Source: a virus. From it: 28,840 bases of DNA. This document shows positions 85-22,738 of this stretch, one piece after another. The DNA lies in IMG/VR virus record IMGVR_UViG_3300009551_000105. One strand, 5' to 3'. The notes beneath the pieces were generated by a model, which worked only from the letters and a program-made list of their open reading frames with translations, was not told the DNA's origin and ran no database searches. The stretch's first letter is position 1; each line of letters begins with the position of its first letter. Both the position numbers and the translations under genes were made by a program.

Positions 85-513
85 ATGGAAAAAGTAGATT
101 TTAAATTTCACACCCAATCTAAACGCAATGATAAGCGTGGGAAAAATAATCTATTTTCAAAAAGGATCTATCAATTTTCAATTGATGGAAATTTAATTAA
201 TATATTTTATGGAACTGTTGAAGCTCAAGAAAAAACAGGAGTTCGTCGAGAATCTATCAGTCGTTGTTGTAACAATAAACTGAAAAGTTCAGGCGGATAT
301 TTGTGGTCATATAAAAATCTATGTCCTCCATTTCCTAGTAGAGAAGTACGTACAAGAAAAAATAAAATTATATTAATTGGTCCTAATCAAAATATTTACA
401 AAATAGGGAATTTAAAAAAGTTCTGCGAAGAACAAAAATTAAACTATAAGAGCTTTCATAAAGCTATTAATGGAAAAAACAAAGCCTACGGCATTTGGCA
501 AAGAAAGAAATAG
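85..513 (+). CDS. Standalone homing-endonuclease-like DNA-binding protein (Seg/I-TevI-type NUMOD-like HTH repeats, no catalytic domain); likely degenerate HEG remnant
   Basis: Two copies of the HEG C-terminal DNA-binding module: 'IYQFSIDGNLINIFYGTVEAQEKTGVRRESISRCCNNKLKSSGGYLWSY' and 'IYKIGNLKKFCEEQKLNYKSFHKAINGKNKAYGIW'. The same motif type occurs in the C-terminus of the GIY-YIG ORF at 10055-11035. No GIY-YIG or HNH motifs are present. ATG at 85 is preceded by GAAGAGA. Stop lies 3 nt before the sheath start. Confidence 0.6.
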   Translation: MEKVDFKFHTQSKRNDKRGKNNLFSKRIYQFSIDGNLINIFYGTVEAQEKTGVRRESISRCCNNKLKSSGGYLWSYKNLCPPFPSREVRTRKNKIILIGPNQNIYKIGNLKKFCEEQKLNYKSFHKAINGKNKAYGIWQRKK

Positions 514-7997: not shown

Positions 7998-9920
7998 ATG
8001 AAGACATTTACACTTGCACAATTAGCAGAAGGTACGCACCGCCGTTCACTTGGCGCAGACGCACCACGTCTCGCTAAGAAATGGTCTGCAACTGGTCTTC
8101 TTGAAGGTCTTAAAGGCATGAACCGTGACAATATGTCTCGTCTTCTTGAGAACCAGGCTGCTGAGCTTCTCAAAGAAACGAATGCATTGTCCACTGGTGG
8201 CGCTGCCCTTACTTCAAGCGGTAAAATCGCAGGTTTTACTAACGTCGCATTCCCAATTGTGCGCCGTGTATTCGCAGGTTTAATTGCAAACGAAGTTGTA
8301 TCGGTTCAGCCAATGAGCCTTCCAACCGGATTGCTTTTCTATCTAGATTATACATACGGCTCATCCATTGGTGGCGATGCAGGTACAACTGCTAACCAAT
8401 TCGGAACAACGTCCGTAGTTAACCCATCAACCTACACCAGCCAAGACTCTGTGTACAACAACCCACGTGGTTCAGGTGTACGCTCAGGTTCTCTTGCAAC
8501 TGGCGGTCAATATGACTTGGTAGGTCATGGTTATTCAAAAGTTCACGTACAAAGCCGTTGGCTCTCTGGCTCCACTGACTCGGTCGGTGCATGGGTTTCA
8601 GGTTCCACATGGACGAGCGCAGCAACTGTAGCAGCTTCGGCTGACTTCACGGGCTTCAACGCACGTTATGCAATGTACGATTCAACTGTAGAAGTTGATC
8701 TTGGAAACAACGCACTTGATTACTGCTTCGCCTTCATCAGCGCATCAGAATTCTCGGGCAAGATCAATGGCGCAGACTTGAACAACATCAACCAAATCAG
8801 CTTGACTGGTTTCGGTGGTGTAACAAACTCCTCCATTGAATGGGGTGAGAAGTACCAAGGTGGTCGTGGCGTACTCAATCTCCGCAAGCTAACGCAACGT
8901 GGAAACTGGAACGCTACAGCAGGTCTCTTCACACCAGATCCACTTAACGGCTCACATCTTTTGTTTGTTGTACGTCTTGCTAACGCAGGTACGGCTCCAG
9001 CTCCAAACGGTGCAGTTGGTAACGCAGTAACAGCATCCGCAGCAATTGCAGACGCTCTCTCTGTAAACAGTGATGGTTCAACTCTTACGATCCCAAGCTT
9101 CGAATCTGACTTCGCCGTCGATTCCAGCCCACGTATCCCAGAAGTTGATATCCGTATCGAATCCACAAGCGTAACGGCTCAAACCCGTAAGCTACGTGCT
9201 CGTTGGTCACCAGAAATGGCTCAAGACCTTACGGCCTTCTACTCAATCGACGTAGAAGTTGAATTGACAAACATTCTCTCCGAGATGATCACGCTCGACA
9301 TCGACCGTGAAATCTTGAACGACTTGCTTACCCAAGCAGGTGCAGCAAACTTGTTCTGGTCACGTGCCCCTGGCAAGATCGTCAACAAGTTCACTGGAGC
9401 TGAAGCACTTCACACAAGCACGCTTGCACCAGGCCCAATGGCATTTGTAAACATCCAAGAATGGTATCAAACCCTTCTTGAGACGATTACGGACGTGGCT
9501 AACACCATTCACCGTAAGACGCTTCGTGGTTCAGGTAACTTCATTGTAACGTCACCAGACGTTTGCACAATCCTTGAGCATCTTGTAGCATACAAGCCAT
9601 CCTACCGTGTAGACGCAGATGGTCAAGTACGTGACAACATGGTCATCGGCGCAGAAGCAGTTGGTACGCTTAATAACCGTTACACCATCTACAAAGATCC
9701 ATACTTCCCAAGCAACAAGATCCTTGTTGGTTTGAAGGGTAACACCTTCCTTGAGAGTGGTTATATCTACGCTCCATACGTTCCTCTCATCTTGACTCCG
9801 GTCATCTATGCACAGGAAGACTTCACGCCACGTAAGGGTGTAATGACCCGCTACGGCAAGAAGATGGTTCGTAACGACTTCTACGGAACCGTTACAGTGT
9901 TGGATATGAGTACCATATAG
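7998..9920 (+). CDS. Major capsid protein, T4 gp23-like (HK97 fold with insertion domain)
   Basis: 'VRRVFAGLIANEVVSVQPMSLPTGLLFYLDY' matches T4 gp23 'VRRAIPNLIAFDICGVQPMNSPTGQVFAL'. 'ARWSPEMAQDLTAFYSIDVEVELTNILSEMITLDIDREILNDL' matches 'LKAAYSIELAQDLRAVHGMDADAELSGILATEIMLEINREVVDWI'. 'RGSGNFIVTSPDV' matches 'RGEGNFIIASRNV'. C-terminal 'YIYAPYVPLILTP...TRYG' matches gp23. N-terminal propeptide-like segment ends in 'ELLKE'. Confidence 0.95.
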   Translation: MKTFTLAQLAEGTHRRSLGADAPRLAKKWSATGLLEGLKGMNRDNMSRLLENQAAELLKETNALSTGGAALTSSGKIAGFTNVAFPIVRRVFAGLIANEVVSVQPMSLPTGLLFYLDYTYGSSIGGDAGTTANQFGTTSVVNPSTYTSQDSVYNNPRGSGVRSGSLATGGQYDLVGHGYSKVHVQSRWLSGSTDSVGAWVSGSTWTSAATVAASADFTGFNARYAMYDSTVEVDLGNNALDYCFAFISASEFSGKINGADLNNINQISLTGFGGVTNSSIEWGEKYQGGRGVLNLRKLTQRGNWNATAGLFTPDPLNGSHLLFVVRLANAGTAPAPNGAVGNAVTASAAIADALSVNSDGSTLTIPSFESDFAVDSSPRIPEVDIRIESTSVTAQTRKLRARWSPEMAQDLTAFYSIDVEVELTNILSEMITLDIDREILNDLLTQAGAANLFWSRAPGKIVNKFTGAEALHTSTLAPGPMAFVNIQEWYQTLLETITDVANTIHRKTLRGSGNFIVTSPDVCTILEHLVAYKPSYRVDADGQVRDNMVIGAEAVGTLNNRYTIYKDPYFPSNKILVGLKGNTFLESGYIYAPYVPLILTPVIYAQEDFTPRKGVMTRYGKKMVRNDFYGTVTVLDMSTI

Positions 9921-9955: not shown

Positions 9956-9984
9956 GGCCAGATGCAAATCTGGCCTTTTTCTTT
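9956..9984 (+). terminator. Rho-independent terminator after capsid gene
   Basis: ggccaga-tgcaaa-tctggcc followed by tttttcttt. Confidence 0.8.
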
Positions 9985-10054
9985 ATCTTTTTTGACTTCT
10001 ATGGAATATTTGATTAGGGTATACAAAAGTCTTCTTATGTTTTATTCTTTAGAG

Positions 10055-11035
10055 ATGAAAAACTTTTTTAATGGTCAATCAAAATGTGGTGGCGTGTATA
10101 GAATATTTTGCACAAAATCTTTTAGATCTTATATTGGTTCAACTGCTGTTTTTACAAACAGATTTTCACAACATAAAAAAGATTTATTTAATAATTTGCA
10201 TCATTGCAAATTTCTTCAAAGAGAATGGAATAAATTTGAACCAGAAGATTTTGTGTTTGAAATATTGGAGACAATAGAAATACAAAATCCGAAAGAAGCA
10301 AAGGAAAAAAGACTTCAAACAGAACAAAAATATATTGATGAGATATTACAAAAGTTCAATAGAGACCAACTCTACAATGGTTATACAAATGTAAGAGACA
10401 TTCCTTATCTTACGAGACACGATGACTATAAAGAAAAAATGAGAGTAAAAATGGTCGAATATTATTCCAAGCCAGAAAATAGAGAAAAATCAAAACAACA
10501 AGCGCTCAAGCAGTGGTCTGAACATTCAGCTAAAATAACAGTTACAAATAAAGATACAAAAGAAACGGTTTTGATAAATGGTTCCATTAGGGACTTCTGT
10601 TTAGCTCGTAATCTCTCATATAAATCATTCCATCTTATGGTCCAAGGAAAAGTAAAGGTCTCTGATGGCTGGTTCCTTGGCACGGAAGAGCCAAAGTATC
10701 ATAATCGTAGAGGTGAGAAGAGAGGTCCAATGTCCAAAGAACAGAAAGAGACAAGAGCGGACGTCTCAAGGGAAGGTATAGTTATAGAAAATTTTATAAC
10801 AAAGGAAACTATTGTGCTTGGTAAAAATATTAAGGATAGCTGCTCTCCAGGGAAGCTAGACTATAAGGCTTTGAGAAGATTGTTGCTTGATGAAACTTCG
10901 TTTACACAAAACGGATGGTTTAAGAAATCATTAGAGACCAAGGTTAGAAACGAGATTAAAGGTTTTTGTGGAAAGTGTAATCTAGTGTTTGGAAGTAGCT
11001 CAGGAATGAGAAACCATAGGAGAAGATGTGAATGA
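10055..11035 (+). CDS. Free-standing GIY-YIG homing endonuclease (T4 Seg / I-TevI-like) with C-terminal NUMOD-like DNA-binding repeats and a Cys/His zinc-finger-like tail
   Basis: 'GVYRIFCTKSFRSYIGSTAVFTNRFSQHKKDLFNNLHHCKFLQREWNKF..FVFEILE' carries the GIY..YIG, R, H, N and E motifs of the GIY-YIG domain. C-terminal 'LINGSIRDFCLARNLSYKSFHLMVQGKVKVSDGWF' and 'IVLGKNIKDSCSPGKLDYKALRRLL' are HEG DNA-binding modules. 'CGKC...H...C' at the end. The upstream in-frame start at 9962 overlaps the terminator, so ATG 10055 is chosen. Confidence 0.88.
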   Translation: MKNFFNGQSKCGGVYRIFCTKSFRSYIGSTAVFTNRFSQHKKDLFNNLHHCKFLQREWNKFEPEDFVFEILETIEIQNPKEAKEKRLQTEQKYIDEILQKFNRDQLYNGYTNVRDIPYLTRHDDYKEKMRVKMVEYYSKPENREKSKQQALKQWSEHSAKITVTNKDTKETVLINGSIRDFCLARNLSYKSFHLMVQGKVKVSDGWFLGTEEPKYHNRRGEKRGPMSKEQKETRADVSREGIVIENFITKETIVLGKNIKDSCSPGKLDYKALRRLLLDETSFTQNGWFKKSLETKVRNEIKGFCGKCNLVFGSSSGMRNHRRRCE

Positions 11036-14513: not shown

Positions 14514-15236
14514 ATGATTTATTATCAATGGTCCAGAGGACACACGCAATTATTTTGGGATTTTGATCAAAATACTCGACAAAGTAAGTTAAATGATCTC
14601 TTTGTTAAATATTTTGGAGAAAGAAGCCACGGATTCTTTGTTGAAATAGGTGCAAATAACGGACTTGATTGCGGTGTCACAACTCCGTTGGCCGATTTAG
14701 GTTGGACGGGACATTTTATAGAACCCGATCCAGATATGGCTCGTGTGTGCCAAAATAACCATGCAAATAATCCAAATATATCAACGCACGTTCTAGCTAT
14801 CTCAAATGAAAATGGCGAAGGCACGCTTCACATGGCCGGAATGGGGTCTACCATTTCAGAGCAATATTTTCAAACCGCAAAAACCATTGGATGGAGTGGA
14901 TTGTCAGATAATTCGGGTAAAGTAACAGTTACCAAATCAACCTTGGAACATTTTTTACAGACTATCAATGCACCTTCAAACTATGATTTATTATCTATTG
15001 ATACAGAAGGTTCTGAATTGGATATTTTAGAAGCATTTTCTGGTCATTGGGACCAGTGGCGCCCAAAAATGATTGTCATTGAACTAACGGATGAACATCC
15101 TGATTTTAGAAATAGACCAGATTGGGTTGAACGTGAATTGAAAACACGTAAACTTATTTTAGATGCCGGTTATAAACTTGAGTTTAAAGATGAAATAAAT
15201 TCAGTCTATGTATATAATGAAATAAAATCATTATGA
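14514..15236 (+). CDS. FkbM-family SAM-dependent methyltransferase (Methyltransf_21-like)
   Basis: 'FVEIGANNGLDCG' matches the FkbM 'DIGANvG..S' motif. Overall pattern '..GW.G..IEP.P........N.......A.S...G...L........S.....L....DLL.ID.EGSELDIL.....W....P.MIVIE' fits the FkbM domain. Confidence 0.75.
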   Translation: MIYYQWSRGHTQLFWDFDQNTRQSKLNDLFVKYFGERSHGFFVEIGANNGLDCGVTTPLADLGWTGHFIEPDPDMARVCQNNHANNPNISTHVLAISNENGEGTLHMAGMGSTISEQYFQTAKTIGWSGLSDNSGKVTVTKSTLEHFLQTINAPSNYDLLSIDTEGSELDILEAFSGHWDQWRPKMIVIELTDEHPDFRNRPDWVERELKTRKLILDAGYKLEFKDEINSVYVYNEIKSL

Positions 15237-15742: not shown

Positions 15743-16627
15743 TCAAGCTTTGAGAATTTTTGCGTAAGCTTTTGAAACATTCTCGCTAATGAATAGTGAG
15801 TTAAATTCAACAGCTTCTTCAACGCTATCAAGACCTTGTTCTTGTTCCAAGGGTTGTTCGTTTGTTTCTTCTGGTTGCTCAACTGGATATTGTCCATGGG
15901 CTTCCATATCTGGCTCAGCAGTTGCTTTCCAGATATACCAAGTAATAGCCTGAACTGCTTGCGGAGAAAGACCAACAAGATCGGCAACTTTTCTATAATC
16001 ATGAATCATAGCCGCACGTTCATTTTTATTTGGAGAAGCCATGTTTTTCAAAGGTTTCTTTTCGCCACGCCAAATGTTAATAGCGTGACCATCCAATACG
16101 ACATCGTGAGAAATTTTCTCTGGTTCAAGTAATGATTGGAAAAACACGGTCACTTTTGGACCTTTTACATAGCTTACATCACCAGTTTTGAGAATACTGT
16201 TAGCTTTAGCCACGTTTGCTTTGTAGGCAGGGACTTTTCTCCAAAACTTGAATTTTTTGTCGCCGTTTTTTCTTTTCCAGTTGTCCATTACTCTTTTTGC
16301 CGCCAAAAGATTTAATTTCCAGGATAAATTCGGACTTAAAACCGCTACTACAGCAGCGGCTACTGGTTTTGGAACATCATAAATTTTCGCGAGTTCATCA
16401 ATATGTCTTGTAGCGTGTTGATACCAAAATCCCCAATAGTCTATTTCTTCTTTTGTGGCTTTCTTTAGAATGGAAAGAATATTATGAAAACCTTCATTTT
16501 TGAATAAATTCAACTTTGAAACAGGGATTTTTCCTCTTTTTGGTTCGTCAACTATATGACTAATATCAGCTTCAGGGCCACTATCTTGTTCTAGAAGAAA
16601 GTTTAAAAATTTATCCAAATGTGACAT
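15743..16627 (-). CDS. Hypothetical protein (294 aa) on minus strand; stop codon abuts the stop of the convergent 15233-15742 gene
   Basis: Long intact ORF with ATG start. Trp/Lys-rich middle, acidic C-terminus. Confidence 0.5.
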   Translation of the reverse strand: MSHLDKFLNFLLEQDSGPEADISHIVDEPKRGKIPVSKLNLFKNEGFHNILSILKKATKEEIDYWGFWYQHATRHIDELAKIYDVPKPVAAAVVAVLSPNLSWKLNLLAAKRVMDNWKRKNGDKKFKFWRKVPAYKANVAKANSILKTGDVSYVKGPKVTVFFQSLLEPEKISHDVVLDGHAINIWRGEKKPLKNMASPNKNERAAMIHDYRKVADLVGLSPQAVQAITWYIWKATAEPDMEAHGQYPVEQPEETNEQPLEQEQGLDSVEEAVEFNSLFISENVSKAYAKILKA

Positions 16628-19317: not shown

Positions 19318-20025
19318 ATGTCAAATATATCAAGAGCTAGATTTCAAAAATTAGCAGGCATTCTCACCGAAGAATCGAAAGAGTCGTTGCAAGAAACCAT
19401 AATGGAAGGGGCTTCAAGACCTTTCGATATGGATGCAAAAGAAATGCTCATAAGATATTGTGCGTGGCTCCGAGCAATTCATATTTGGTTTCACGGAGCA
19501 CATCATACAACTCGTGGAGTTGGATTTTCGGGCGATCATACTGCTCTCTTTGAAAGAATTTACACAGCCGTCCAAGATGAAGTGGATGGAGCTATAGAAA
19601 AAGCAATTGGAATTACTGGCGACCAAGGTTTGGGATGCCCGAAGTTGATTACAAGAGAAGCTTTAACCCTAATCGATCGTTATGGTTCCCCTGCCGAAAT
19701 GGAATCAAAAAATATTGCAAAAGAAGGTCTTAAAATTGAGGAAGACTACATTGCTTTCGTAGAAAGAATGTTTAAAGCTTTTGAAGCAAAAGATATTATG
19801 ACGCTTGGATTAAACGATCAATTGGCAGCATCAGCAAATGCACACGAAACGTTTGTGTACCTTCTTTCTCAAAGAATTAGAAGCACAGAGGACACAGTAA
19901 TGCAAATGGACGATGTTGGGGAAACTTCAACTTTCCATCTTCCAGAATTACCAGCAAACCTGGGTACCGTACCAATGGCACCAGTTAAAGTTCCTAATGC
20001 TGGCGGCAATCCATTTGGAATGTAA
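19318..20025 (+). CDS. Hypothetical protein with leader 'SRARFQKLAGILTEESKESLQE' (paralogous to N-terminus of 21291-21830)
   Basis: ORF with ATG; shared LAG(I/L)L(T/K)E motif. Confidence 0.5.
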   Translation: MSNISRARFQKLAGILTEESKESLQETIMEGASRPFDMDAKEMLIRYCAWLRAIHIWFHGAHHTTRGVGFSGDHTALFERIYTAVQDEVDGAIEKAIGITGDQGLGCPKLITREALTLIDRYGSPAEMESKNIAKEGLKIEEDYIAFVERMFKAFEAKDIMTLGLNDQLAASANAHETFVYLLSQRIRSTEDTVMQMDDVGETSTFHLPELPANLGTVPMAPVKVPNAGGNPFGM

Positions 20026-20038
20026 AACAAGGAAGTAA

Positions 20039-20872
20039 ATGTCCAAAAAAGCTCTTTTAGAGACAATTGAAATTCTTGTAAAAGAAGAAATAGAAAGTCT
20101 CTCTTTAAAAGAGAAGATTAGAAGTTCTACATTTAATTGGAAAGAGTTCAAGGCCCTGCCAGATATTTTTAAAATGAAAGAATATTTGGATGCAACCTTG
20201 GTTTCTTTAAGCGAAACACGTCAAAAAACCGGAAGAGAAGGATCGGCTAGAAAAGTATATCTTCTTTCAAGTGGTAAAGTAATAAAACTTGCTAAAAACA
20301 ATGCTGGCTTGGCTCAAAATGAAGCCGAGGCTTCGGCATCAAAAACACCGGATATAAAGCCGGCAATAGCTAAAGTATTTGATAGCGATCCAAAGTTTTT
20401 TTGGCTTGTTTCCGAATTGGTTAAACCATTAGAAAAAAGCAATATGTATCGAGTTGGACAATTTTTTGGTGGTGATATTTTTCCAACTACTGATTCATTT
20501 GAACAATTTGCTTGGTATGTTTGGGAAAACAAAGGCGATGTTGATAGGTCTTTGATAAAATTTGAACATCAACAAGCTCCTTGGCTATCAAAATATAATC
20601 CAAACATTGGAAAAGATATCAAAAATCCAAAAGTAATAGCAAAACTAAATGAATTTTTCAAATCATTACTCGAGTTTTGTCAAAAAACTGGTTCAAGATA
20701 TGAAGATATCGCTTCAATTTCTTCTTTTGGTATTTCGGCAGAGGGAAATCTTGTAGTTTTGGATTATGGCTTTACGAAAGAAGTTGGACAAAAATATTAT
20801 GATTGGAGAACCCAATCAGATATTGAAGCCGGTGCAAAACAAGGTTATAAAGCAAATCTCAATGCAAAGTAA
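20039..20872 (+). CDS. Atypical protein-kinase-like (RIO/Bud32/Kdo-like) protein with N-terminal leader
   Basis: 'GREGSARKVY' resembles a kinase Gly-loop (cf. RIO 'GKEANVY'). 'KVIKLAK' resembles the VAIK lysine motif. 'GKDIKNPKVI' resembles a catalytic loop (cf. DLKPENIL). 'VVLDYGFTKE' resembles a DFG motif. Confidence 0.45.
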   Translation: MSKKALLETIEILVKEEIESLSLKEKIRSSTFNWKEFKALPDIFKMKEYLDATLVSLSETRQKTGREGSARKVYLLSSGKVIKLAKNNAGLAQNEAEASASKTPDIKPAIAKVFDSDPKFFWLVSELVKPLEKSNMYRVGQFFGGDIFPTTDSFEQFAWYVWENKGDVDRSLIKFEHQQAPWLSKYNPNIGKDIKNPKVIAKLNEFFKSLLEFCQKTGSRYEDIASISSFGISAEGNLVVLDYGFTKEVGQKYYDWRTQSDIEAGAKQGYKANLNAK

Positions 20873-21224
20873 GACGAATTTCCCCATCTTCATCTTTTTG
20901 TAAATCTTTTGACCAACCTTCTGTTATTTCGATAATGAATTTGCAACCAGAAGGAATTGGGTATTCTTCTTTATTATTTGATTTCATTGGAATGGTACAA
21001 ATCAATTTTCCTTCTTTGTCAAAACCAAGAAGTTCTAAATTGAATTTTACATTTCTCATATGAAATAATCTTTCCGGTAAATCATCCGTGAAGAGAAATA
21101 ACAAACCTTCAGAACTTGTAGGTCCAGTTGGATGATGTTGATAACCAAGGGCACGTTCCTTGTCTGTCCGTAAAACTTTTACAGAGCACTCTTTGTTTGC
21201 TATTGTACAGTTCCAGAATGACAT
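20859..21224 (-). CDS. DUF192 (COG1430/UPF0127) family protein
   Basis: 'RTDKERALGYQHHP....EGLLFLF......RLFHMRNVKFNLELLGFDKEGKLICT' plus 'CKFIIEITEGWSKD' fits the DUF192 consensus (..T.eeR.rGLM.R......GMLFvF......FWMkNT.iPLDiiFiD.dG.iv ... yVLE.naGw). Overlaps the convergent kinase-like gene by 14 bp. Confidence 0.6.
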   Translation of the reverse strand: MSFWNCTIANKECSVKVLRTDKERALGYQHHPTGPTSSEGLLFLFTDDLPERLFHMRNVKFNLELLGFDKEGKLICTIPMKSNNKEEYPIPSGCKFIIEITEGWSKDLQKDEDGEIRLTLH

Positions 21225-21290: not shown

Positions 21291-21830
21291 TTATTCAACT
21301 TGTGAGTTGATTTCTTTTTTAAGAGCTTCAATAGCTTGCCCAAGACGCTTCAAAAGCATTTCTGCTTTTTTCACACCTTCGACCGATGCTTTTACTTCTC
21401 CCAATTCAAATCCAATATCGTTGATTATAGTTGCGTTGAAACCATCATCTTCGAAGCCAGGTGGCAATCTTTCACCAAATTGCTCTTCATCTTCGTTTCT
21501 TTCGGTTTCTAATTGTTGCGCCGCACGCAAATCTTCTTCATCTTCTCTGGATGGCCAAAGAGATTCGGGCGATTCGTCACCAAATTTTTGTTCAGTAATT
21601 TCTCCGCCTTTTGCTGCCGCAATCATTTTTGGAATATCGAAATTATATTTTTTGGCAAAAGCTCGCACTCCAGGTGCAACTTCATCTGGATGAAAACTTA
21701 CGCCCATAGCGTAATCGGCCAACCATTCATCTACGGTGTTATATTTGTAGTGGCGTTCGTCACCAACTTCAATTTGTTCTTTTAACAGGCCAGCCAATTG
21801 TTTTAGACGATTTGAATTTAAGAATGACAT
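21291..21830 (-). CDS. Hypothetical acidic protein; N-terminus 'MSFLNSNRLKQLAGLLKEQIE' paralogous to ORF 19318 leader
   Basis: The ORF track start at 21878 is TTG and overlaps the upstream gene; the first ATG is at 21830. Confidence 0.45.
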   Translation of the reverse strand: MSFLNSNRLKQLAGLLKEQIEVGDERHYKYNTVDEWLADYAMGVSFHPDEVAPGVRAFAKKYNFDIPKMIAAAKGGEITEQKFGDESPESLWPSREDEEDLRAAQQLETERNEDEEQFGERLPPGFEDDGFNATIINDIGFELGEVKASVEGVKKAEMLLKRLGQAIEALKKEINSQVE

Positions 21831-21855: not shown

Positions 21856-22263
21856 TCAAATGTTTTTTCTATTTCCAATTGTCATATGAAAACAGTGTTT
21901 TAAGTCTGGCGGACAATTATATTTTGCCCAAATTGGTAGCCCTAATTCGGAACGAATATTTTCTAAATCTTTACTGTAGCAATTCAGCCAATAGTATGTT
22001 TCGTCATTATAAACCACTGGTTCATATTGAAAATCGATCACTTTACCTTCGTAAAGCTCCCACTTTGTTAAATCTAATGGTTTTTCTTTACGGACTACTG
22101 TAATATGAGGAGCATAGCGTTGCTGATTACATTTGTACCACTTTGGTAAAAGTCCCTTGTAATAAGCAGAAATTTGTGGGTCAACCTCGACATTTACCTT
22201 ATAGTAAGTGTCTGGATCTACGACCGAATATCGTAAAATGCCCTGTGAGCTTATGAGCTGCAT
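21856..22263 (-). CDS. 2H-phosphoesterase-superfamily protein (two H-x-T-x motifs); candidate Acb1-like cyclic-oligonucleotide phosphodiesterase
   Basis: 'APHITVV' and 'HCFHMTIG' are separated by about 73 residues in a ~135-aa protein, as in LigT and Acb1 folds. Start uncertain (TTG at 22278 or ATG at 22263). Confidence 0.45.
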   Translation of the reverse strand: MQLISSQGILRYSVVDPDTYYKVNVEVDPQISAYYKGLLPKWYKCNQQRYAPHITVVRKEKPLDLTKWELYEGKVIDFQYEPVVYNDETYYWLNCYSKDLENIRSELGLPIWAKYNCPPDLKHCFHMTIGNRKNI

Positions 22264-22318
22264 AACGTATAATACCAAATTGGTATAAATTAATAAACCA
22301 TTATGTAAAGTTCATAGG

Positions 22319-22738
22319 ATGAAAAACGAATTTTATTTTTTTATTGACTTATATACTTTTTTATTCGAAAATAAAAACGATGCTATTGAATATAAAACAA
22401 CAGAAAACGATATGGTCTTCTATGATTTAGAAGAGGCAGAGTTTTGGAGTCGTCTGACCGATTATAAAATTTCTATAATAGATGAATTTATTTTATTTCT
22501 TGTATTAGAAAAAGAAGTAGTAACTTCTTCATATGAAATTTGGAAAGTTATTGGTTTGGAAAAAGTTGGTTGGATTGTTGTTGACGAAGAGGTTAAACCT
22601 TATCTAAAATTATTAACAGAGAAAAATAAAGAAAAATTTGTTAATGATAAAGAATACGCAGAATATGAAAAAACTGCTGAATATGCGGAAGCATATAAAG
22701 AGTATGTCGAAAAAAACGAAAAGAACTTTTTGTCGTAA
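22319..22738 (+). CDS. Paralog family member G (remote copy); 'YEIWKVIGLEKVGWIVVDEEVKPY' plus EYA-repeat C-terminal extension
   Basis: Shares the W.VIG.EK.GWIVV motif with the tandem array at 11685-13784. Confidence 0.5.
   Translation: MKNEFYFFIDLYTFLFENKNDAIEYKTTENDMVFYDLEEAEFWSRLTDYKISIIDEFILFLVLEKEVVTSSYEIWKVIGLEKVGWIVVDEEVKPYLKLLTEKNKEKFVNDKEYAEYEKTAEYAEAYKEYVEKNEKNFLS

Follow-up and report, generated by a model that had tools for sequence, protein, structure and literature searches.

A phage-encoded stand-alone 2H phosphoesterase outside the Acb1 family: sequence affinity and genomic neighborhoods point to RNA or tRNA end healing

The stretch of viral DNA analyzed here, IMG/VR record IMGVR_UViG_3300009551_000105 (28,840 nucleotides, hereafter the window), carries on its minus strand a gene for a 135-residue protein that the initial annotation had assigned to the 2H phosphoesterase superfamily and put forward as a candidate Acb1-type nuclease acting against the cyclic oligonucleotide-based antiphage signaling system (CBASS). 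We found that the protein is a genuine member of the 2H superfamily, that it does not belong to the Acb1 family, and that its relatives form a large, uncharacterized, phage-borne family in jumbo and huge phages. We propose with moderate confidence that it takes part in end healing as an RNA/tRNA 2',3'-cyclic phosphodiesterase and acts in trans alongside CCA-adding enzymes, ligases, or cREC (cyclic-phosphate processing receiver domain) enzymes of the phage. The gene and its two conserved motifs, both read from the DNA and located on the structural model described below, are as follows.

21856..22263, minus strand: coding sequence of the 135-residue stand-alone 2H phosphoesterase (2H-SAK-like, PHROG 12204)
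22090..22107, minus strand: proximal motif H53-I-T-V-V-R58 (HxTxxR), on strand E53-60 of the model
21871..21888, minus strand: distal motif H126-M-T-I-G-N131 (HxTxxN), on strand E125-131 of the model

The open reading frame (ORF) starts with ATG, and the encoded protein has the N-terminus MQLISSQG. An in-frame TTG at 22278 would lengthen the protein by 5 residues; the homologues begin at the ATG position. The initial annotation had described two H-hydrophobic-T-hydrophobic motifs about 73 residues apart in a protein of about 135 residues, and both were recovered here, HITV at H53 and HMTI at H126, with a spacing of exactly 73 residues between the two histidines. When all 57 stop-to-stop ORFs of at least 100 residues in the six frames of the window were scanned for a pair of H-hydrophobic-[ST]-hydrophobic motifs, this ORF was the only one to contain it (1/57).

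A word-indexed search returned 48 homologues at 39-73% identity, nearly all of them 114-160 residues long and one of 200 residues. Every one was unnamed or labeled 'hypothetical', and several were located on contigs of 70-503 kb. A hidden Markov model search of 1.84 billion cluster representatives (50% identity) retrieved 1105 at E<=1e-3, 680 at E<=1e-10, and 160 at E<=1e-30; the best 150 of the 1105 were all stand-alone proteins of 88-198 residues, and all but two had at least 114 residues. By tblastn, relatives at 26-42% identity were identified in the cultured jumbo phages RaK2, K64-1, BF, GAP32, CBB, Atu_ph07, RsoM2USA, Bacillus phage G, and a Vibrio phage, where all are annotated as hypothetical. 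The window protein also matched PHROG 12204, a group of unknown function, at 3.7e-15.

In the alignment of the 48 homologues, H53, R58, Y90, W92, R104, L107, G108, P119, and N131 are invariant, H126 and T128 are retained in 90% or more of the sequences, and several aromatic residues are nearly invariant. The family motifs can be written H-[IV]-[ST]-V-V-R and F-H-x-T-[IL]-G-N. The members from cultured phages retain both His motifs and R104/G108 and are missing a 12-residue loop. The window protein is probably active as a phosphoesterase.

An AlphaFold2 model computed from the family alignment had a predicted local distance difference test score (pLDDT) of 95.9 and a predicted template modeling score of 0.88. 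The model consists of two beta-beta-alpha-beta units, with each HxT motif on the last strand of its unit. This predicted duplicated 2H-like fold, together with the two conserved HxT motifs, upholds the superfamily assignment of the initial annotation. About 100 residues of the model superpose on solved 2H enzymes, and the structure comparison gave the following figure for each.

CNPase: 6.0
Deinococcus cyclic phosphodiesterase (CPDase): 6.0
Acb1 from phage FBB1: 5.8
MHV ns2: 5.8
Acb1-type PDE-9 of phage BCSR5: 5.7
PH0099 LigT: 5.6
Penguinpox cGAMP PDE: 5.5
YjcG: 5.4
Usb1, three entries: 4.6-5.1
Escherichia coli ThpR: 5.0
Plant CPDase: 4.5
AKAP18, two entries: 4.4-4.5
Atu0111: 4.3
Rotavirus VP3: 4.2

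The modeling supports the 2H fold prediction, and by this comparison the family is roughly equidistant from every solved 2H family and no closer to Acb1 in particular. Foldseek returned no significant match in the PDB, and in BFVD it found only two significant matches, both to uncharacterized viral proteins, followed by a weak tail in which CPDase, LigT, SAK, and Acb1 labels were mixed. Single-sequence and profile searches of PDB sequences yielded no 2H relative and only chance matches.

The Acb1-type label did not survive direct comparison. Pfam Acb1 (PF23474) did not match the window protein at E<=1, nor any of the 48 homologues at E<=0.01; the positive control, T4 57B, matched the same model at 2.6e-60. 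In a profile-profile check with hhalign, the family profile reached a probability of 10% over 27 columns against an alignment of 19 Acb1 sequences, and 3.6% against T4 57B. Both runs paired opposite lobes, because what they aligned was only the repeated helix-loop-HxT unit. The extended motifs are different as well, since Acb1 has HxTxxY in both lobes, with Y49 and Y118 nearly invariant, whereas the window family has HxTxxR58 and HxTxxN131.

Acb1 carries a C-terminal lid, residues 145-152 with W147, has E141 in contact with adenine, and stacks its ligand with Y12, W74, and F107 (PMC9117128). PDE-9, which is related to Acb1, uses an N-terminal lid (Doherty et al. 2025, preprint). The window protein has only 9 residues beyond H126, and its N-terminus is modeled as an ordered strand from residue 4 with a pLDDT of 95; it is therefore predicted to be without an Acb1-type terminal lid, and W147 and E141 of the phage T4/FBB1 Acb1 (gene 57B; PDB 7T26/7T27) have no equivalent in it. 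The genomic associations of the family likewise differ from those of Acb1. Membership in the Acb1 family was accordingly rejected on the missing Pfam match, the low hhalign probability, the lack of a terminal lid, and the different extended motifs. With the sequence tools, the first lobe (HITVVR; residues 24-65) aligned to the distal lobe of LigT, ThpR, and Acb1, and the second lobe (residues 97-130) aligned to the proximal lobe of Acb1. These cross-lobe alignments suggest a swapped-lobe or permuted relationship, or may simply reflect the internal duplication of the fold.

A protein outside the Acb1 family could nonetheless be its functional analogue, that is, a phage immune-evasion phosphodiesterase acting on cyclic or linear oligonucleotide messengers (CBASS, type III CRISPR, 2'-5' linked). 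We consider this rather unlikely. Like Acb1, the window protein is a small stand-alone phage 2H protein, its conserved aromatics Y12, Y35, Y50, W68, Y80, Y90, and W92 could stack on bases, and the gene shifts between genomic contexts as an accessory counter-defense gene might. A structure search by Doherty et al. (2025) brought together 75 divergent 2H proteins from phages, and several of the structural groups cleaved immune nucleotides, degrading CBASS or CRISPR messengers. Two of their groups, however, cleaved 0/18 messengers, so that the fold alone is not predictive of activity, and none of the cultured-phage accessions carrying the window family is present among the 75 proteins of their Table S1. 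The window family also has none of the lids that drive the activity of Acb1 and PDE-9, its extended motifs are unlike those of Acb1, none of 48 members matches the Acb1 model, and both its closest sequence family and its recurrent neighbors, presented below, belong to RNA repair.

The entry for Atu_ph07 in the list of Doherty et al., AUZ94815.1 (L052 2144-2491, minus strand), is a different mini-2H protein of 115 residues that is unrelated in sequence to the window family. It has HHVT and YHVT motifs and a weak match to the fungal tRNA-ligase CPD domain. Since Atu_ph07 carries both AUZ94815.1 and gp658, a member of the window family, it encodes at least two distinct 2H proteins, and a jumbo phage can thus have several such enzymes.

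The best family-level match of the window protein was to Pfam 2H-SAK (PF22547), with E=3.5e-5 over residues 42-133 and collinear across both HxT motifs. This model was matched by 32 of the 48 homologues at E<0.01, the best at 3.7e-7, and three of the homologues (P0031, P0041, and P0047) had a precomputed PF22547 assignment. The sole other weak matches were to LigT/ThpR models, with PF13563 at E=0.009 over one lobe. No NCBIfam family matched the window protein, and TIGR02258, the equivalog model for ThpR, gave 12.5 bits against a cut-off of 65.7, which is not significant. On sequence grounds, the family is peripheral to Pfam 2H-SAK, its closest sequence family. 2H-SAK is the 2H domain of multidomain 'Swiss Army Knife' RNA-repair proteins, whereas the best 150 representatives of the window family stand alone.

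E. coli ThpR, an RNA 2',3'-cyclic phosphodiesterase, has the motifs HxTxxF and HxTxxR, and the Arg of the latter is essential (PMC4201822). The invariant R58, at +5 of HxT, gives the window family the same extended motif as the HxTxxR of ThpR, and both Pfam and NCBIfam align the HITVVR motif to the distal lobe of LigT/ThpR. The window protein is ~40-50 residues shorter than E. coli ThpR (PDB 4QAK) and has fewer helices.

The genomic neighborhoods of the homologues were then compared using loci collected by exact-protein look-up (9), from cultured phages (4), and from IMG/VR with a 10-sequence sub-alignment search (35). ORFs were called, and neighbors within 4 kb were clustered. A Pfam census covered 36 non-redundant loci and, in each, the nearest two genes to either side of the 2H gene, 140 proteins in total; the context homologues were at 42-51% identity to the window protein. 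The commonest immediate neighbor was a CCA-adding enzyme, detected as PolyA_pol_RNAbd in five loci and PolyA_pol in four. A cREC neighbor was found in three loci and TROVE/Ro60 in two. Lysozyme, GNAT, LAGLIDADG, and AP2 neighbors occurred twice each, and RNA_ligase, PTH2, NUDIX, and PhoH neighbors once each. The arrangements around the 2H gene were as follows, with loci given by their numbers.

L007/L014 and L028: CCA-adding enzyme directly upstream of the 2H gene, overlapping it or at <=10 nt
L021, L030, and L038: gene order CCA-cREC-2H
L045-L047: gene order cREC-2H
L031: Rnl2-like RNA ligase directly upstream of the 2H gene (3 kb upstream in L002)
RsoM2USA: TROVE protein directly upstream of the 2H gene
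L004: PTH2 directly upstream of the 2H gene

The association with CCA-adding enzymes recurs in two distant lineages in which the gene orders differ, and the cREC, Ro60, RNA ligase, and PTH2 neighbors come from independent lineages. The cultured phages K64-1 and BF, whose homologues are at 26-29% identity, have in common a block composed of the 2H gene, lysozyme, tRNA nucleotidyltransferase, nudix, glutaredoxin, and macro genes. In BF, an RNA ligase and a 508-residue Ro-like RNA-binding protein are also encoded just upstream.

In E. coli, the HD domain of Cca acts as both a 2',3'-cyclic phosphodiesterase and a phosphatase. In five of the phage CCA-adding enzymes, three of which adjoin the 2H gene and two of which lie 1.6-2.4 kb from it, the HD phosphohydrolase domain was absent at E<=1. 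A separate 2H enzyme for the cyclic-phosphate step would make sense alongside CCA-adding enzymes lacking the HD domain, and the recurrent order of a CCA-adding enzyme with no HD domain detected, cREC, and 2H is a candidate tRNA 3'-end repair cassette. The available portions of Iyer et al. 2021 and 2022 (PMC7824862, PMC9503650) do not describe a CCA-cREC-2H cassette.

From these affinities and neighborhoods, we infer how the protein might act. A minimal stand-alone enzyme of this kind would be a metal-independent 2',3'-cyclic phosphodiesterase in which H53 and H126 would form the general acid/base pair and R58, in an HxTxxR motif as in E. coli ThpR, would stabilize the transition state. It would open the 2',3'-cyclic phosphate left on tRNA or RNA 3' ends by metal-independent host RNases, and a phosphatase would then take off the resulting phosphate. 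Repair would be finished by a phage CCA-adding enzyme or an ATP-dependent RNA ligase whose gene lies at another place in the genome. More tentatively, the family may be either the cyclic-phosphate-opening part of a tRNA 3'-end (CCA) repair cassette, made up of an HD-less CCA-adding enzyme, cREC, and 2H and undoing the clipping of tRNA acceptor ends by the host, or a lid-less degrader of a messenger outside the known panels.

Several observations weigh against a role in RNA end healing. Against 2H-SAK the window protein scores 24.5 bits, short of the Pfam cut-off of 27, and no fusion to HAD or kinase domains was found among the top 150 of the 1105 representatives. The Arg motif is proximal in the window family and distal in ThpR. 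An RNA-repair neighbor was present in only ~11/36 loci, several of which share ancestry; L007, L019, L021, L028, L030, and L039 were assigned to one lineage because of their shared synteny. Neither in the window nor in L049 and L034/L036, its closest relatives, was an RNA-repair gene found close to the 2H gene; the neighbors there are structural genes, genes of unknown function, and one for a vault-like protein. Finally, immune nucleotides are indeed substrates of many divergent 2H enzymes from phages (Doherty et al. 2025).

A role for jumbo-phage 2H enzymes at RNA 2',3'-cyclic phosphates has been predicted before. Iyer et al. 2021 (PMC7824862) proposed that 2',3'-cyclic phosphates are resolved by such enzymes both where they serve as signals and ahead of ATP-grasp RNA ligases. 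Iyer et al. 2022 (PMC9503650) described, in phages such as BF, sirtuin neighborhoods that contain 2H, cREC, and Nudix, and mentioned SAK-like HAD phosphatases. The phage groups treated there (RaK2/K64-1/BF-like, Atu_ph07, and phage G) carry homologues of the window protein, and the example accessions given in the two papers are candidate members of its family only. The associations reported there, with cREC, Nudix, RNA ligase, and CCA-adding enzyme, match those of the window family, and the predicted role is the same, namely action on 2',3'-cyclic phosphates in RNA repair, or on ADPr>p.

The ADPr>p role would make the window protein a cyclic phosphodiesterase for soluble NAD-derived metabolites, with Macro and Nudix enzymes processing the product afterwards, and we regard it as unlikely. 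Macro-domain (Appr-1''-p processing) and Nudix genes do lie 3-6 kb from the homologue in K64-1 and BF, a macro-related gene lies ~5 kb from it in Atu_ph07, and a SIR2 gene lies 1.5 kb from it in L008. In Iyer et al. 2022 (PMC9503650), the 2H enzyme of sirtuin-2H-Nudix-cREC neighborhoods in jumbo phages such as BF is given the ADPr>p role. The 2H protein of that published BF neighborhood is, however, only a candidate member of the window family, the distances in question span several genes, the 36-locus census did not place macro or SIR2 among the leading immediate neighbors, and nothing related to NAD is encoded in the window.

The remainder of the window identifies its source. It is a fragment of a T4-related huge phage, as indicated by a gp23-type capsid protein, a virion structural protein, homing-endonuclease-like ORFs, and the lack of a nucleotide-level match in the phage collection, the blastn search of the region against phage genomes having found none. 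No tRNA genes were found in the window. The principal features outside the 2H gene and its immediate flanks are listed here.

85-513, plus strand: NUMOD1 domain protein, homing-endonuclease-like
7998-9920, plus strand: gp23-type major capsid protein, 640 residues (Pfam Gp23, 5.4e-79)
9962-11035, plus strand: GIY-YIG protein, homing-endonuclease-like, immediately 3' of the capsid gene
14514-15236, plus strand: FkbM-type methyltransferase (3.5e-23)
15743-16627, minus strand: DUF7178 protein (2.6e-34)
22837-25515, plus strand: major-vault-protein-like protein, 892 residues (Pfam MVP_shoulder, 3.9e-26; Vault_3, 4.7e-7)
26071-27309: virion structural protein

This setting bears on one further alternative, in which the 2H-fold protein would serve in 2'-5' RNA ligation or transesterification, in nucleotide or RNA binding without turnover, or in a virion-associated function. 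The gene does sit amid structural genes in the window, between those for gp23 (7998-9920) and the virion protein (26071-27309), and has a vault-like gene beside it both there and in L049; the fold is, moreover, very divergent from the solved 2H enzymes. Such a role is nevertheless very unlikely, as the catalytic His, Thr/Ser, and Arg residues are almost perfectly conserved in a very large family, which favors catalysis, and the proximity to structural genes does not hold from locus to locus. RNA end healing remains the preferred assignment.

The major capsid protein is closest to those of the uncultured huge phage LR756508 and of Flavobacterium and Microcystis phages. Its Pfam Gp23 match is split into two stretches, with residues 358-631 corresponding to profile positions 111-356, and tblastn covered ~60% of the protein, also in two pieces; this implies an insertion of ~230 residues without a recognized domain. 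The GC content at the capsid gene is 47-49%, compared with 29-35% in the flanking DNA. LAGLIDADG, HNH, and AP2 ORFs also flank 2H homologues in several related loci (L006, L009, and L017). The vault-like protein matched only LR756500 (462 kb) and LR756501/LR756503 (735 kb) in the phage collection, all of them uncultured huge-phage records, at 37-38% identity across 95% of its length, and in L049 a vault-like homologue of 895 residues is encoded two genes away from the 2H homologue. It is unusual for huge phages to encode a vault-shell-like protein. Between the capsid gene and the 2H island, the FkbM methyltransferase and DUF7178 genes are situated amid small ORFs that are otherwise unannotatable.

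The immediate flanks of the 2H gene contain the following features.

20800..20818, minus strand: terminator-like hairpin followed by a T-run, 41 nt past the DUF192 stop (consensus scan only)
20859-21224, minus strand: DUF192 protein, 121 residues (Pfam DUF192, 6.1e-9)
21291-21830, minus strand: acidic protein, 179 residues, most likely ORF call (38 D+E versus 22 K+R)
22264..22318: AT-rich divergent intergenic region, 55 nt, between the 2H gene and the ORF at 22319-22738 (plus strand)

As the initial annotation had described, the DUF192 and acidic-protein genes are co-oriented with the 2H gene, the intergenic gaps being 25 and 66 nt. The hairpin at 20800..20818 marks a possible end of this three-gene minus-strand unit; three terminator-like sites were found in the scanned region, with 1.2 expected. 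The acidic protein had no Pfam or PHROG match, and its gene is not kept beside the 2H gene in relatives. A DUF192 homologue is also found near the 2H gene in L034/L036, but on the opposite strand. The closest relatives with available context, L049 (63% identity) and L034/L036 (53%), do not share the three-gene arrangement, and the operon was therefore dropped as a clue to function.

The initial annotation had also pointed to TATAAATT in the divergent AT-rich region. This sequence is indeed present, at 22284-22291, but it is on the plus strand and faces ORF 22319 rather than the 2H gene, and its four occurrences in the window compare with 3.4 expected by chance. The canonical T4 late motif TATAAATA was found twice in the window, with 1.6 expected. 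With both motifs at chance frequency and the cited copy on the other strand, the idea of a T4 late promoter was abandoned. No sigma-70-like site for the minus strand, on which the 2H gene lies, was reported in the intergenic region 22264..22318.

An N-terminal motif is common to two otherwise unrelated ORFs of the window, 19318-20025 (plus strand), where it reads MSNISRARFQKLAGIL, and 21291-21830 (minus strand), where it reads MSFLNSNRLKQLAGLL; it may represent a common leader or targeting peptide. ORF 19318-20025 has weak DUF5856 and Dps-like matches, and in K64-1 a DUF5856 protein is encoded 5 kb away from the 2H homologue.

Small phage 2H proteins are often labeled 'Acb1-like anti-CBASS' from two HxT motifs alone, and the fold does not justify this label. 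The family of the window protein is a separate one; it comprises at least 1,100 clusters at 50% identity, is distributed in jumbo and huge phages, and keeps genomic company that points to RNA/tRNA end healing. We suggest that its members be annotated as 2H phosphoesterases (2H-SAK-like) with a putative 2',3'-cyclic phosphodiesterase role, and not as Acb1. If the family degrades immune messengers, it would represent a lid-less variant with a new specificity. If instead the pathway of CCA-adding enzyme, cREC, and 2H proves correct, it would constitute a phage route of tRNA 3'-end repair and would provide a testable partner for the predicted cREC enzyme.

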